The notes beneath the pieces were generated by a model. It saw only the letters and a list, made by a program, of their open reading frames with translations. It was not told where the DNA came from and made no database searches. From assembly GCA_965247395.1 (NCBI GenBank), contig OZ252012.1, positions 242,434 to 306,433 on the forward strand: a stretch of 64,000 nt of DNA, given 5' to 3'. The stretch is from Candidatus Poriferisodalaceae bacterium. GTDB taxonomy: Bacteria; Actinomycetota; Acidimicrobiia; Acidimicrobiales; Poriferisodalaceae. Both the position numbers and the translations under genes were made by a program. Positions 23,268 through 28,647 of this stretch are shown piece by piece (positions within the stretch are counted from its first letter, which is position 1; every line of letters starts with the position of its first letter).

Positions 23268-24383
23268 ATGCTGGTAGGAGTACCCAACGAGATCAAACCG
23301 GGTGAACGCCGTGTTGGGCTAACACCTTCCAGCGTCAGCGAGCTGACGCGTCACGGTCATCAGGTTCTGATTGAGACCAAAGCCGGCAACGGCATCAGCG
23401 CTGATGACGCGACCTACGAAGGCGTCGGCGCTCAGATCGTTGACTCCGCCGCGCCTATCTGGAATAAGGCCGACCTGATTGTCAAGGTGAAAGAGCCGCA
23501 GGCCGCTGAACGAAGCCAGCTAAGCAAGGGTCAAATTCTGTTTACGTACCTGCACCTGGCGCCTGATCCAGAACAAACTCACGACTTGATCAAAAGCGGA
23601 GCCACTGCTGTGGCATATGAGACGGTGACCGACCGTCGTGGCGGTCTACCACTGCTTGCGCCAATGTCACGTGTGGCGGGACGACTTGCTGTGCAGGCAG
23701 GAGCATGGGCGCTAGAGACAGTGCACGGAGGAGCGGGCATCTTGATTGGCGGCGTTCCAGGAGTGCCGGGCGCGCGTGTGGTGGTACTTGGCGGTGGGGT
23801 AGTAGGTGAAAACGCGGCAGAGATTGCGGTGGGTATGGGTGCCAGGGTGCGAGTGCTGGACATCAACCCGCAGGTGCTTGATCACCTGGAGCAGCGCTTC
23901 GGCGCCGGCATTTCCACCATCACCTCAACACGAGTAACGATTGAACACGAGGTGTTGGAGGCAGATCTTGTCATTGGCGCAGTGTTGGTGACCGGTGATC
24001 GTGCTCCAAATCTGGTTACCGCCGACATGGTGTCCAAAATGCGACCCGGATCGGTGATCGTTGATGTGGCGATTGACCAGGGTGGCTGCGTAGAAACATC
24101 ACACCCCACCACACACTCCGACCCGACATTCACCGTTGATGACGTTGTTCACTACTGCGTGGCCAACATGCCTGGAGCGGTACCGCTTACCTCAACGCGT
24201 GCGCTCAACGACGCCACCTTGCCGCACGTGTTAGCGCTAGCAGACCATGGGTTGGACGCGCTGCGAGCCGATGAGCACTTGCGAGCAGGCCTAAACGTGC
24301 ACCTCGGCATGGTGACCGAACCGCACGTGGCTTCGTCGCTAGGTCTGCAATATGTTGACGCTCTGGATGCGCTAAAGACCTAG
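23268..24383 (+). CDS. ald: alanine dehydrogenase
   Basis: 371 aa. N-terminus MLVGVPNEIKPGERRVGLTP and the Rossmann motif VLGGGVVG are typical of Ald. Confidence 0.9.
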   Translation: MLVGVPNEIKPGERRVGLTPSSVSELTRHGHQVLIETKAGNGISADDATYEGVGAQIVDSAAPIWNKADLIVKVKEPQAAERSQLSKGQILFTYLHLAPDPEQTHDLIKSGATAVAYETVTDRRGGLPLLAPMSRVAGRLAVQAGAWALETVHGGAGILIGGVPGVPGARVVVLGGGVVGENAAEIAVGMGARVRVLDINPQVLDHLEQRFGAGISTITSTRVTIEHEVLEADLVIGAVLVTGDRAPNLVTADMVSKMRPGSVIVDVAIDQGGCVETSHPTTHSDPTFTVDDVVHYCVANMPGAVPLTSTRALNDATLPHVLALADHGLDALRADEHLRAGLNVHLGMVTEPHVASSLGLQYVDALDALKT

Positions 24384-24400
24384 TCCTAGAGCCTTGGCGC

Positions 24401-25006
24401 CTAGCCGCGGCCCATCGTGAAGAATTCCTCGTTGGGACGCATTGACGTCAGGTGAGCCATGCGGTTCGAAAGCGCAAACAAAGCGGTGATCGCGCCGATG
24501 TCCCAGATGTCGTCTTCGCTGAAGCCGTGGTCGCGTAGCTGTTCGTGGTCGGCCTCTGCTACTTCTGATGGTTTGACAGCCAGCTTGATAGCAAAATCGA
24601 TCATCGCTTTTTGCCGTTCGCTCAGATCCGCTTGGCTGGGATCGACCGCCAACTGGTCAGCCAACATCGGTGCTTTGGAGCGAATGCGCAGGATCGCTCC
24701 GTGAGCGACCACGCAATACGTGCAGTTGTTCGCTCCGCTTGTGGCAACGACGATCATCTCGCGCTCGGCTTTGGTGAGACCACTGTCTCTTTCCATCAAC
24801 GCGTCGTGGTAAGCCATAAAAGCCCGCAACTCATCCGGTCTGTGAGCTAAAGCCAAGAAAACGTTAGGTACAAAGCCGGTTTTGGACTGAATGGCTTCCA
24901 TGCCCACGCGCAGATCTTCAGGAATCTCGGCAATTTCCGGCACCGGAAACCTAGATATAGGTGGTGCTATTGGTTCAGCTACTTGCGAATCCTGCTTGGC
25001 GTTCAT
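24401..25006 (-). CDS. carboxymuconolactone decarboxylase / AhpD-like peroxidase-related protein
   Basis: 201 aa with the AhpD-type redox motif NNCTYCVVAH (CxxC). Confidence 0.8.
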   Translation of the reverse strand: MNAKQDSQVAEPIAPPISRFPVPEIAEIPEDLRVGMEAIQSKTGFVPNVFLALAHRPDELRAFMAYHDALMERDSGLTKAEREMIVVATSGANNCTYCVVAHGAILRIRSKAPMLADQLAVDPSQADLSERQKAMIDFAIKLAVKPSEVAEADHEQLRDHGFSEDDIWDIGAITALFALSNRMAHLTSMRPNEEFFTMGRG

Positions 25007-25056
25007 ACGGCCAGCCTAGATCGCTAACCGCAGCATCTATCCAGCATCTATCAGAG

Positions 25057-25131
25057 TGGTACGCCCCCTGGGATTCGAACCCAGAACCTGCGGATTAAGA
25101 GTCCGATGCTCTGCCATTGAGCTAGAGGCGC
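25057..25131 (-). tRNA. tRNA-Lys (anticodon CTT), CCA encoded
   Basis: The reverse complement folds as a cloverleaf: acceptor GCGCCTC/GGGGCGT, anticodon loop CTCTTAA, T-arm CTGGG-TTCGAAT-CCCAG, then ACCA. Confidence 0.9.
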
Positions 25132-25165
25132 GAAAGGTCGAACAAAAGTTGTTCTGCACGACTAG

Positions 25166-25240
25166 GCGGACCGAGGGGAATCGAACCCCCGACCTCCAGT
25201 ACCACAAACTGGCGCTCTAACCGACTGAGCTACGACCCGC
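25166..25240 (-). tRNA. tRNA-His (anticodon GTG) with encoded G-1
   Basis: Reverse complement: G-1 + CGGGTCG acceptor pairing with CGGTCCG, anticodon loop TTGTGGT, T-loop TTCGATT, discriminator C opposite G-1. CCA is not encoded. Confidence 0.9.
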
Positions 25241-25242
25241 AG

Positions 25243-26292
25243 GTGTCTCTAAGCATGCTATGGCCGCAACCAGTTCGCTACGCTGACAAGGTGACCGCTC
25301 AGCGTCTTTCTCCGGTTGATTACATCCCCCGTATTACCGCTCAGTATGAAGGTCTGGGGTATGGCGTGTACCGCTGGATGCACAGCGAAGACCCGCCCGC
25401 ATGGGCTCCGCTTTCAAAGCCACTGTCGCAATCACGCTTGGGTTTGATCGCCACCGGCGGTGTTTATGCCGCAGGCCAAACCGCCTTCCATTACAAGGAC
25501 GACACCACCTATAGAGCCATTGCGACCAACACGCCGACCGATAAGTTGCGTGCCACTCACTTCGCCTATGACTTGACTGACGCGCGCAATGACATCAACT
25601 GTGTGTATCCGATTGATGCGTTGCGCGAATCGGTAACCAAGGGCGAGATTGGCGAGCTGGGGCCGAGCGCTTACACGCTGATGGGCGGCATCTACAGCAC
25701 TCGACGTGTAGACGAAGAGCTCATTCCTGAGCTGGTGAAACGTTGCCACGAAGATGCCTTAGATGCCGTGTTGTTGGTGCCCGTCTGACCGGTCTGTCAT
25801 CAGACCGTGGGTCTGATAGCGAGAGCATTGGAGGCGTCCGGCATACCGACCTTGTCGATGTCCAGCGCACGCGATATCACACGCGCTGTGGATCCACCGC
25901 GATCCGTGTATCTCGATTATCCGTTGGGGCACACCTCGGGTCGTCCGTTCGAGCCGAGCCTCAATTACGAGATCATGGTTGACACGTTGGCCGCGTTTGA
26001 AGCGTTGACCGAACCAGGATCAATGGCTCATCTGCGCTATCGCTGGACCGATACCGACGAGTGGAAAAACAAGGTGTTTACGCCGATTAGCGCGGGGATA
26101 AGTAGCGCTGGGTCAGGCAGCGCTGGGATAAGTAGCGCTGAATCGGACAGCATTAAGTCGGGCGCAACCTACGAAGACGATCGAGTGCCGCGTTACGACA
26201 CTCCGCAATATCAAACAGACCTTGATGCCACACATGCCGCTGAGTTGCATGACGGTGAAGACTGTCTGGTTTGCGCAGGTATCGACTATTAA
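25243..26292 (+). CDS. GrdB/PrdB-family reductase-like protein, candidate selenoprotein (TGA 25786-25788 read as Sec)
   Basis: ORFs 25243-25788 and 25807-26292 are in the same frame. They are separated only by the TGA plus six sense codons. The joined reading ...DAVLLVPV-U-PVCHQTVGLIARALEASGIPTLSMSSARD... gives a U-x-x-C motif at the position where this family carries its redox Sec/Cys. A stem-loop follows the TGA. The start is uncertain (GTG 25243 or ATG 25255). Confidence 0.65.
25799..25817 (+). promoter_or_regulatory. candidate bacterial SECIS stem-loop
   Basis: ATCAGACC-GTG-GGTCTGAT forms an 8-bp stem with a G/U-containing apical loop. It starts 10 nt after the in-frame TGA. A competing hairpin CGGTCTG-TCAT-CAGACCG (25790-25807) shares the CAGACC arm. 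Confidence 0.5.
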
Positions 26293-27229
26293 CCAGCAAA
26301 ATAGTCAGCAAAACGAGCGCCAAGCCTCAACCGGCGCGCAGTCGCCTGGCACGGGCAGTGATTACGACCCGGCAACGGTGCCGATCCGCGATGCGGCGAC
26401 CGTTTTGATCCTGGATGAGCAACCGGATCTACACGTGTTGATGCTGCAGCGAAACGCCCGCTCGATATTTGTCGGCAACATGTGGGTATTCCCGGGTGGC
26501 GCTGTTGATCTTGAAGACGCTTCACGCCAAGCCGATGACACGGTCGCAGGATTAACCGACGCCGAAGCATCAAGGCGCTTAGGTATTACCAAAGGTGGCA
26601 TTGCGTTTTGGGTTGCCGCTTTACGGGAGACATTTGAGGAGGCGGGCGTCTTGTTGGCTCATGCGGCAAGAGACGAAGGCGCTGCTCCATCGAAGATCAT
26701 CGATCTGTCCGCACCCGAGGTAAGCGAACGTTTTGAGAGCTACCGCAGCGAGGTCAATGCTGGCGAGCGGGATTTCATCACCACGATGGTGTCCGAAGGC
26801 CTGCATCTGGATGGCAACAACGTCCATTTCGTCGGTCGCTGGATTACGCCGGAAGGCCCGCCGCGTCGCTACGACACAAGATTTTTCGTTACCACTATGC
26901 CCACCGCTCAGGTGCCGCTCCACGACAACGATGAGGCTGTTGGGCACAGATGGGTGCGAGCAAGCGACGCCATTTCGATGAACGAGCGCGGCGAAATGGT
27001 GATGATGACGCCCACAATCGGGATGCTTAAGCGCCTGGTGTGCTACGACTCAATTTCGCAAGCAACCCAGGCGGCAGCCAGAGCTAAGGAGACCGATGAC
27101 GAGAATGTTCGGATTCGGTTTAACAACGACGGACCGCATCGCATCGCATTTCCAGCAGATGATGACTATCACGAAGCCGATGGTCGTGTGGAGACCGGTA
27201 TGTTGCGGTGGCCGGCTTGGCAGAATTAG
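26222..27229 (+). CDS. NUDIX hydrolase
   Basis: Nudix box elements are present (FPGGAVD ... ALRETFEEAGVLL). The start is ambiguous: ATGs at 26222-26249 overlap the upstream gene, and GTG 26378 (VPIRDAATVLILDE) would avoid the overlap. Confidence 0.75.
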   Translation: MMPHMPLSCMTVKTVWFAQVSTINQQNSQQNERQASTGAQSPGTGSDYDPATVPIRDAATVLILDEQPDLHVLMLQRNARSIFVGNMWVFPGGAVDLEDASRQADDTVAGLTDAEASRRLGITKGGIAFWVAALRETFEEAGVLLAHAARDEGAAPSKIIDLSAPEVSERFESYRSEVNAGERDFITTMVSEGLHLDGNNVHFVGRWITPEGPPRRYDTRFFVTTMPTAQVPLHDNDEAVGHRWVRASDAISMNERGEMVMMTPTIGMLKRLVCYDSISQATQAAARAKETDDENVRIRFNNDGPHRIAFPADDDYHEADGRVETGMLRWPAWQN

Positions 27230-27240
27230 CCGTGTGCACG

Positions 27241-27314
27241 GCCTCCGTGGCGCAACTGGATAGCGCAGCGGGCTTCTATCCCGAAGGTTGCAGGTTCGAG
27301 TCCTGCCGGGGGCG
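27241..27314 (+). tRNA. tRNA-Arg (anticodon TCT)
   Basis: Acceptor GCCTCCG/CGGGGGC, D-arm GCGC-AACTGGATA-GCGC, anticodon loop CTTCTAT, T-arm GCAGG-TTCGAGT-CCTGC, discriminator G. Confidence 0.9.
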
Positions 27315-27317
27315 CAA

Positions 27318-27974
27318 ATGAGCAGCGCGGGTAACTCCAGCAGTAACTCCACCGGTAACTCCAGCAACAGCTCCACCGATAACCACACGGGTGCAGTAAC
27401 CGGTGTTGAGCCTGACCTGGATCGGATCGAAGCCGCTGTGCACGAGATATTGCTAGCGATCGGTGAAGATCCCAACCGCGACGGTCTGGTAAAGACCCCT
27501 AAGCGCGTTGCGCGCATGTATGCCGAGATCTTCTCGGGATTGCGCGAAGACCCTCAGCACCACCTTGAGGTGCAGTTTGAGTCGGGTCATAACGAGATGG
27601 TGATGCTGCGCGACATTCCCTTCTATTCAATGTGCGAACACCACTTGTTGCCCTTCTCCGGCATGGCTCATGTGGCATACATCCCCAGTGATGAGGGCAT
27701 CATCACTGGGCTGTCGAAGCTCGCTCGTCTAGTAGAGGCGTATGCCCTACGGCCTCAAGTGCAGGAGCGGCTGACGACGCAGGTAGCCGACAAGCTGGTG
27801 GAGGTGCTGAAACCGAGCGGTGTGCTGGTGGTGGTCGAGGCCGAGCATCAGTGCATGGCGATGCGCGGAGTTCGCAAACCCGGCTCGCTCACAATCACGT
27901 CGGCCGTGCGGGGACAGTTCTTAGAAGCCCCTACTCGTGCCGAGGCAATGAACCTGATTGGGATAGGCAGGTAG
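27318..27974 (+). CDS. folE: GTP cyclohydrolase I
   Basis: Conserved FolE core ([34 protein letters not shown]). The ATG at 27318 is 3 nt after the tRNA-Arg 3' end. The ORF-track start at 27288 lies inside the tRNA and is rejected. Confidence 0.9.
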
Positions 27975-27981
27975 CAGCGGG

Positions 27982-28647
27982 TTAAATAGCCACGGGACTG
28001 ATGCCGAGCCCAAAGCGCTCCGACATGACTGTCAGCGTTATCCAATAATCAAAATCGGGCACGAAGTCTTCCAGCGTGAACCGTTGGCTGGTGTCATCAC
28101 CGCTAGCGGTATTGCCCCTTAGTTCGATTGCGTCGGTCTGCTTATCAAACAAAGCCAAGAGATCGGCTGCCGCCCCTTCAAATACCGCATCCACTTCACC
28201 TTGCGCTAAGCGGTAGTTATGCAGAGGCCGGTCGTCACGTAGCAAGAAGACATGGGTGAACTCCTTGTTCATCTGCCCTTCACCCTCGTTATCCACCAAA
28301 AGCCGAATACCCAACGGAGTTAGCTCGCCAGGATCGACCTGCACACCTATTTCCTCGGCTAACTCACGCACCCCGTCGCCGGGTGTCTCACCCGCAGCAA
28401 GGTGGCCTGCGGCGCTGACGTCTAGTAATCCACCGAAGGCGAGTTTCGAAGCGTGCCGACGTTGCAGCACCATGTTCGGAACGCCATCTCTCAGGGCAAC
28501 GATCTGGCAATGAAACACGGCGTGCCACAGGCCATGCCGATGAACGTGCGCGCGCGGCGCGGTACCTAACGGCTTGCCGTTGGCATCTAGAAAGTCAAGT
28601 AGTTCAGATTTGTTTGAGTTGTCGCTACAGGAGTTTGGCGTAGTCAT
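27982..28647 (-). CDS. NUDIX hydrolase (IPP-isomerase-like subgroup)
   Basis: MTTPNS... starts at ATG 28647. The Nudix box is GHLAAGETPGDGVRELAEEIGV. The longer ORF-track form overlaps the LLM gene and is rejected. Confidence 0.75.
   Translation of the reverse strand: MTTPNSCSDNSNKSELLDFLDANGKPLGTAPRAHVHRHGLWHAVFHCQIVALRDGVPNMVLQRRHASKLAFGGLLDVSAAGHLAAGETPGDGVRELAEEIGVQVDPGELTPLGIRLLVDNEGEGQMNKEFTHVFLLRDDRPLHNYRLAQGEVDAVFEGAAADLLALFDKQTDAIELRGNTASGDDTSQRFTLEDFVPDFDYWITLTVMSERFGLGISPVAI

Follow-up and report, generated by a model that had tools for sequence, protein, structure and literature searches.

The window analysed here, the whole stretch of 64,000 nucleotides (nt) from a Candidatus Poriferisodalaceae bacterium (contig OZ252012.1) whose genome is a single 2.08-Mb contig, carries on its + strand, at 25243..26292, a putative selenoprotein gene of the PrdB/GrdB family with a TGA at 25786-25788. 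The two open reading frames (ORFs) that flank this codon, 25243-25788 and 25807-26292, share one frame, and reading through the TGA gives a single product of 349 codons with a predicted selenocysteine (Sec, U) at residue 182, in the motif V-U-P-V-C-H-Q-T, where it belongs to the UxxC active-site motif U182-P-V-C185. An initial annotation, made from the letters of the DNA, had placed the TGA in frame, which the continuous 349-residue reading bears out, and had described two mutually exclusive hairpins directly behind it. We report that the downstream one, hairpin B, is very probably a textbook-type bacterial selenocysteine insertion sequence (SECIS; bSECIS for the bacterial type) of a PrdB-like UxxC selenoprotein gene, a known family, and that the other, hairpin A, appears to arise incidentally from the codons for P-V-C-H-Q-T and not to be a functional element.

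The letters around and behind the TGA are, in order, GTCTGA (25783-88, with the TGA at 25786-88), CC (25789-90), GGTCTG (25791-96), TCAT (25797-25800), CAGACC (25801-06), GTG (25807-09) and GGTCTGAT (25810-17); a single CAGACC thus lies between two copies of GGUCUG, with letters and coordinates exactly as first given. Hairpin B, the candidate bSECIS upper stem-loop (25799..25817, + strand), consists of 8 base pairs (bp) and a 3-nt loop, with the 5' arm AUCAGACC at 25799-25806, the loop GUG at 25807-25809 and the 3' arm GGUCUGAU at 25810-25817. In many relatives its closing C-G pair is open, which leaves 7 bp and a 5-nt loop (here CGUGG). Hairpin A, CGGUCUG-UCAU-CAGACCG (25790..25807, + strand), has 7 bp and a 4-nt loop. 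Both were recovered as perfect stems in an exhaustive scan of the window for perfect Watson-Crick stems, and with CAGACC (25801-25806) as their common arm they exclude each other, as had been proposed. The scan, controlled with 30 block shuffles, found 15 perfect 8-bp hairpins with loops of 3-9 nt on the + strand of the window compared to 7.4 +/- 3.4 in the shuffles, and two 6-bp triples with a shared arm on the same strand, the CAGACC site being one of them, compared to 0.1 +/- 0.3. Judged by base composition, the shared-arm arrangement is therefore rare; the block shuffles take no account of coding constraints, which explain hairpin A.

A homologue of the gene was present in 41 of 61 related genomes (its own included) and in 34 of the 36 belonging to the window's own family, and 3 of the 401 genomes in a phylum-wide sample (again with its own) matched at E <= 1e-45; this sample added two loci and no cysteine (Cys) form. 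Single relative genomes carried up to 6 matches to the PrdB/GrdB-like family. A scan of one genome per species gave 385 relatives, of which the best 80 were kept; these are mostly labelled as metagenome-assembled genomes (MAGs) of Acidimicrobiales or Acidimicrobiia, and the more distant ones include Pseudomonadales, Binatia, Chloroflexi, Spirochaetaceae and others. Over close relatives and other phyla together, the codon aligned to U182 was TGA in 112/112 homologous loci, in all of which the homology extends across the TGA; orthologues align past it as far as the C-terminus, and no Cys-containing orthologue was found among these 112 closer loci. One contig in the set (L074) is labelled as a Nitrosopumilus MAG, and its Acidimicrobiia-type orthologue nests within the actinobacterial clade; the contig is probably mis-binned.

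The genome also carries the complete selenocysteine machinery, with every component above its curated cut-off: tRNA-Sec (selC, 64.8 bits), selB (281.7 bits) and the adjoining selA (404.3 bits), which lie together at C1:1646240-1648488, and selD (325.2 bits; C1:134965-135933, - strand), which lies outside the window. The selD homologue has one in-frame TGA of its own, and the SelD of this genome is probably itself a selenoprotein. The invariant TGA in 112/112 loci, the existence of Cys homologues (see below) and the Sec machinery of the host all point to UGA 25786-25788 (+ strand) being read as selenocysteine.

The conservation of the hairpins was followed in a gapless alignment (A2) of 91 distinct orthologous sites of 78 nt each, numbered so that column c is window position 25770 + c. 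Standard pairs of hairpin B were found in 95.6% of 728 cells, whereas in a control with the 3' partners slid by 1-3 columns at most 47.4% of the cells were paired. Double-sided changes occurred in 38 cells, compared to 10.8 +/- 2.5 after shuffling, and the covariation score was 0.162 compared to 0.060, neither value being reached in any of 500 shuffles. The pair 25804:25812 (columns 34:42) was A-U in 62 sites, U-A in 26 and U-G in 1, with 2 sites unpaired, and the switch from U to A at 25812 is a synonymous GGU -> GGA; the pair 25803:25813 (33:43) was G-C in 86 sites, G-U in 3 and A-U in 2, and the pair 25800:25816 (30:46) was U-A in 69 and C-G in 9. When RNAalifold was run unguided on the 91 sites, it predicted hairpin B alone, with 7 pairs and a 5-nt loop. 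A possible lower-stem extension of hairpin B (25793..25824, + strand), which under constrained minimum free energy (MFE) folding joins 25796-97 to 25819-20 and 25793-95 to 25822-24, was rejected as a conserved element: pairs 26:50 and 27:49 are fixed by coding, pairs 25:52, 24:53 and 23:54 are unpaired in 59, 24 and 24 of the 91 sites, respectively, and RNAalifold gives none of them.

The synonymous sites of hairpin B are fixed in a way that goes against the codon usage of the genes themselves, which was counted over the 93 orthologues with codons -2 to +11 excluded. At Gly +8 the codons were GGU 58, GGA 26, GGG 1 and GGC 0 (n=85), compared to 50.5% GGC gene-wide, and where this residue is Ser the codon was AGU in 7/7 cases (5.4% gene-wide). 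CAU encoded His +4 in 71/92 sites (24.6% gene-wide), CUG or UUG encoded Leu +9 in 92/93 (53%) and CAG encoded Gln +5 in 91/93 (70.6%), with UUG standing opposite both CAA rows. The entropy of third positions, calculated over the first 30 loci, was 0-0.67 bits at codons +5 to +9 and 0.88-1.96 bits elsewhere, a range that includes the third positions of invariant Pro, Gly and Thr residues. This pattern argues for hairpin B being under selection as RNA. A codon bias was also seen beside the UGA in the 93 orthologues, with GUC at Val -1 in 51/88 and at Val +2 in 59/89 (40% gene-wide), and CCU at Pro +1 in 24/92 (9% gene-wide); it might stem from common ancestry, the kin not being independent of one another, or from an influence of the context on how the UGA is decoded.

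Because the covariation among orthologues rests on few independent events, we brought in paralogues. At 22 TGA paralogue sites with 25-36% identity, of which the window's own genome supplied two, the TGA stood at the aligned position in 22/22, a hairpin matching hairpin B in register was present in 22/22, and the six core pairs were complete in 20/22. The stem letters differ widely (CAAAC/GUUUG, GCGUAC/GUACGC, GGGCGC/GUGCUC, GUGUC/GACAC, GCGCAC/GUGUGC) and the loops read N-GUG-N or N-GUC-N; over the 113 rows of orthologues and paralogues we counted 20 distinct core stems in an identical register, and the three central loop letters start with GU or GG in 109/113. Paralogues in which the peptide itself differs (T-R-T-V-S-T-L) keep the hairpin. 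A conserved stem with compensatory changes, which the initial annotation had wanted to see in Sec-containing orthologues, was thus found in orthologues and paralogues alike. The two paralogues from the window's own genome (L247, C1:1901946-1903325, and L248, C1:1070413-1071879) are PrdB/GrdB-like genes with an in-frame TGA and a hairpin in the register of hairpin B, with different stem letters and a CGUGA loop. In three paralogues from relatives (L041, L042, L043) the motif is U-P-L-D-H-Q-T, with Asp in place of the UxxC Cys, and the SECIS hairpin is intact.

As a negative control, metagenomes were scanned for the pattern P-x-C-P-V-C-H-Q in which a TGY codon stands in place of the Sec-UGA, which gave at least 119 stretches, of which 80 were taken: 60 were true homologues, 3 were short spurious tblastn matches and 17 had no homology. 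Cys (TGY) therefore occupies the Sec position in at least 60 metagenomic homologues, which share 32-42% identity over about 260 residues and the motif LVPN-C-PVCHQT-x-S-L-V-A-R-H-L. Among the matches listed, the 59 distinct Cys homologues formed on average 5.17 of the 8 pairs in the register of hairpin B, compared to 7.66 in 93 distinct Sec forms; all 8 pairs were present in 0/59 Cys homologues and in 72/93 Sec forms, and the mean local MFE was -5.1 and -9.6 kcal/mol, respectively. The codons of the Cys homologues are free at this place, with AGC 32 compared to AGU 3, GGC in 2/2 and CUC or CUU in 15/59. Retention of an identical structure in Cys forms, which would have marked it as codon-driven, was hence not observed for hairpin B.

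In its spacing and in its G/U loop, hairpin B had initially been likened to bacterial SECIS elements, and it agrees with all four constraints of the consensus as summarised in PMC13188914. This consensus has an upper stem of 4-16 bp capped by an apical loop of 3-9 nt, and in hairpin B the stem counts 8 bp with the loop GUG, or 7 bp with the 5-nt loop CGUGG; it also calls for a G at the first or second loop position or at both, with G or U as the usual next letter, and hairpin B has G25807 followed by U25808. The distance from the UGA to the loop is given as 16-37 nt, likewise in PMC10778597, and is 18 nt here (25789-25806), and the MFE, for which the limit is <= -7.5 kcal/mol, is -9.7 kcal/mol for the isolated hairpin and -9.1 kcal/mol on average over the 93 orthologues. 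Hairpin A departs from these rules, as no G occurs in its loop UCAU and its UGA-to-loop distance is only 8 nt (25789-25796). Compensatory changes in Sec homologues together with loss in Cys homologues, and a host with selA, selB, selC and selD, are likewise what was found for hairpin B.

In isolation hairpin A has a small predicted advantage in stability over hairpin B (-10.5 vs -9.7 kcal/mol). In a 61-nt context the probability of hairpin B, P(B), is 0.95, and in ribosome-free contexts of 101-401 nt the ensembles are dominated by hairpin A, with P(A) of 0.91-0.99; in these models hairpin B is not the resting fold on free mRNA here. The competition is real in silico and specific to the lineage, as hairpin A is at least as stable as hairpin B in 8/93 orthologues and P(A) exceeds 0.5 in 13/93. 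While the UGA occupies the A site, roughly ten nucleotides downstream of it lie within the ribosome. When the nucleotides past the UGA were held single-stranded, up to +4 through +9, P(A) fell to 0.000 and P(B) was 0.97-0.99, and across orthologues the same constraint gave a probability of the hairpin B core above 0.5 in 83/93. Only hairpin B would be able to form at decoding, because the ribosome with the UGA in the A site covers the 5' arm of hairpin A. We therefore picture the following course, in which SelB binding, Sec insertion and the ribosome footprint are inferred. Hairpin A may form on ribosome-free mRNA in the window's lineage and would be melted by an approaching ribosome; with its 5' arm inside the ribosome, CAGACC would be free to pair with the downstream GGUCUG. 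As UGA 25786-88 enters the A site and the mRNA channel covers roughly the next ten nt, the 8-bp (or 7-bp) stem of hairpin B with its G-U loop would stand at the channel entrance, where it would tether SelB.GTP.Sec-tRNASec, and the UGA would be decoded as selenocysteine.

The initial annotation had left two options for the alternative pairing, coincidence or a modulation of Sec insertion versus termination. The second would make the two hairpins a regulatory switch, in which hairpin A sequesters the 5' arm of the SECIS and the balance, possibly governed by the spacing of ribosomes, by temperature, by SelB or by the supply of selenium, tunes Sec insertion versus termination. The predicted dominance of hairpin A in the longer ribosome-free ensembles and its slight advantage in isolation would fit this, as would the rarity of shared-arm triples by base composition (2 vs 0.1 shuffled), the complete hairpin A (7/7) in the closest relatives L016-L018 and in 23/59 orthologues with the 3' arm CAGACCG, and the enrichment of GUC at Val +2. 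We nevertheless consider a switch very unlikely. Hairpin A is paired in 81.5% of 637 cells, but its covariation score is 0.030 compared to 0.027 shuffled, and 109/500 shuffles scored as high; where A changes to U at 25804, the partner in hairpin B compensates in 27/29 sites and the partner in hairpin A never does. Its pairs 25791:25806 (21:36), 25793:25804 (23:34) and 25794:25803 are unpaired in 51/91, 29/91 and 24/91 sites, respectively, and its free synonymous sites vary. In its 5' arm, CCG at Pro +1 is not enriched (40/92 vs 53% gene-wide), and the excess of GUC at Val +2 need not stem from hairpin A, because Val -1 has the same bias; C25794 can moreover pair alternatively with G25823, and the dependence among kin makes enrichment figures overstated. 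Hairpin A is at least as stable as hairpin B in few orthologues, is predicted to be excluded once the ribosome covers at least 4 nt past the UGA, that is when the UGA is decoded, and lacks the loop and the spacing of a bSECIS. It is also about as complementary in the Cys homologues, which have no need of a SECIS, as in the Sec forms (5.34 vs 5.72 of 7 pairs), because V-C (GUNUGY) complements Q-T (CAGACN): with V-C as GUN UGY and Q-T as CAG ACN, the peptide already gives five of the seven pairs. In the window, the 5' arm of hairpin A consists of the P-V-C codons CCG GUC UG(U), and the Q-T codons CAG ACC that they complement make up the 5' arm of the SECIS. Coincidence is therefore the better reading of the alternative pairing, hairpin A being explained by codons. 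A third possible pairing, of GUCUGA (25783-88, with the UGA) with UCAGAC (25800-05), at 25783..25805 on the + strand, was rejected as incidental, with a covariation of 0.045 compared to 0.044 shuffled (175/500 as high) and an ensemble probability of 0.000. For an RNA with two alternative folds, covariation would be expected for both, and here it backs hairpin B only, neither hairpin A nor the third pairing.

One might go further and regard both hairpins as by-products of a conserved peptide and GC-rich codons, with the UGA as a true stop between two separate genes or as a codon read through independently of structure. The peptide H-Q-T-V-G-L-I is highly conserved indeed and partly imposes the nucleotide conservation, and several further observations weigh against hairpin B as a SECIS. 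The fold of the 61-nt local sequence has a z-score of only -1.56, weak compared to shuffles, so folding energy alone would not single the site out; a scan of 24000-28000 against Rfam, with E up to 10, returned tRNAs and chance matches only and no family at the site; and hairpin B, as said, is not the predicted fold of the free mRNA. In a phylogeny of 94 proteins built with FastTree after masking the codons of the site, many forks of which are weakly supported, the minimum numbers of changes were 5 (pair 34:42), 5 (33:43) and 14 (30:46); the A-U -> U-A switch probably occurred once or twice only, and the orthologue covariation taken alone is thin, with few independent events. Pair 25800:25816 shows a C.A mismatch in 13/91 sites, L038 and L046 have a weak hairpin B (U.U mismatch, -3.0 kcal/mol), and in L121 the hairpin sits in a shifted register. 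Finally, the Cys homologues form a separate subfamily and are not strict orthologues, though Sec paralogues of like divergence do keep the hairpin. The by-product explanation is nonetheless extremely improbable, as the synonymous sites of hairpin B run against codon preference (GGC 0/85, CAU 71/92), the compensatory double changes include the synonymous partner GGU -> GGA, Cys homologues with the same or a similar peptide lose the pairing, paralogues with another peptide retain it, homology crosses the TGA in every locus and the genome has the full Sec machinery.

With hairpin B as the bSECIS and hairpin A as a codon-derived look-alike, a narrower role of hairpin A can still be imagined for the window's own small clade. 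On free mRNA, hairpin A could hold CAGACC and in this way mask the SECIS by blocking the pre-loading of SelB, which the folding models make conceivable but which we regard as very unlikely; the SECIS would then be exposed only during the last two or three translocation steps, as the ribosome melts hairpin A, and at most hairpin A could postpone the loading of SelB until a ribosome comes. If this were true, the efficiency of Sec insertion would be coupled to translation kinetics or to SelB abundance, and read-through versus termination would be tuned in a lineage-specific manner. Its scope would be the 8/93 orthologues with hairpin A at least as stable as hairpin B, and selection for such a mask is unsupported. 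By title and abstract, no paper was found on a hairpin that competes with a bacterial SECIS.

As to the protein, it scored 33 bits against the Pfam model PF07355 GRDB (cut-off 22) and so belongs to the GRDB superfamily; its best NCBIfam match was TIGR04483 PrdB, with 151.5 bits, below the cut-off of 300. On these profile scores, it is taken to be PrdB-like and not a D-proline reductase equivalog; the identity as the D-proline reductase PrdB equivalog was ruled out by that score and by the lack of a nearby PrdA partner, and no PrdA, PrdC or GrdA gene was found near the selenoprotein gene (22.2-29.5 kb of the window examined). The orthologues share a C-terminal tail (window 26230-26289), D-D-R-V-x-R-x-x-x-P-Q-Y-Q ... 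C-L-V-C-A-G-I-D-Y, whose second CxxC lies outside the coverage of the clostridial PrdB models. The earliest possible start, GTG 25243, is separated from the tRNA-His gene by 4 nt, and an ATG first occurs at 25255; since orthologues align only from about residue 14-20 of the 349-residue reading, translation probably begins downstream of GTG 25243. Table 2 of PMC2398784 counts 'Proline reductase PrdB' (pfam07355, UxxC) as one of the most abundant selenoprotein families in the sea, for which the GOS data contain 235 Sec forms and 110 Cys homologues.

The surroundings of the gene comprise one group of a zinc alcohol dehydrogenase, an alanine dehydrogenase, a CMD/AhpD-like protein, tRNA-Lys and tRNA-His, followed by NUDIX, tRNA-Arg and GTP cyclohydrolase I genes. 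The tRNA-Lys(CTT) and tRNA-His(GTG) genes (25057-25239, - strand) end 4 nt before GTG 25243. On the other side, the longest reading of the NUDIX-domain ORF (26222-27229, + strand) shares the final 71 nt of the selenoprotein gene, read in a different frame, and its real start may be later. Elsewhere in the window there is a transfer-messenger RNA (tmRNA) gene (2570-2933, - strand) with the tag peptide ANDNTVDLALAA.

The biology described here is ordinary, with a bSECIS of the textbook type in a selenoprotein family that is already known; no paper turned up in a literature search for selenoproteins described as PrdB-like. In annotation, a single selenoprotein gene with a SECIS at 25799-25817 should replace the two ORFs 25243-25788 and 25807-26292; selenoprotein genes are often missed, as reviews note according to the deep-Sep paper. 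The site also serves as a worked example of how a functional hairpin in a coding region can be told from a codon-driven look-alike, by the suppression of synonymous variation relative to the genes' own codon usage, by compensation across orthologues and paralogues, and by the use of Cys homologues as a negative control. The N-GUS-N loop, in a fixed register through three paralogue classes and several phyla, provides a usable search signature for the PrdB/GrdB-like family.

Compared with PrdB/GrdB proteins (PF07355), the product has a GRDB domain above cut-off and the UxxC active site; it differs from clostridial PrdB in its score of about half the cut-off of that model, in having no PrdA, PrdC or GrdA nearby, and in a conserved C-terminal extension that ends in C-x-x-C-x-G-I-D. 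With the exclusive hairpins of riboswitches or attenuators the site shares the single common arm and, here, the similar predicted stabilities of the two folds, but only hairpin B is conserved and covaries, hairpin A is explained by coding, and there is no apparent ligand-binding or sensing element. The closest likeness is to the bSECIS, with E. coli fdhF as its prototype: an in-ORF stem-loop stands right after the Sec-UGA and carries a small loop that starts with G-U. In the minimal fdhF element the spacing is roughly 11 nt, and the stem of hairpin B likewise starts after 10 intervening nucleotides. In contrast to this prototype, hairpin B has no sequence resemblance to fdhF, shows no sign of a bulged U in its stem and has no conserved lower stem, and here a codon-derived hairpin A is predicted to compete for its 5' arm on free mRNA.

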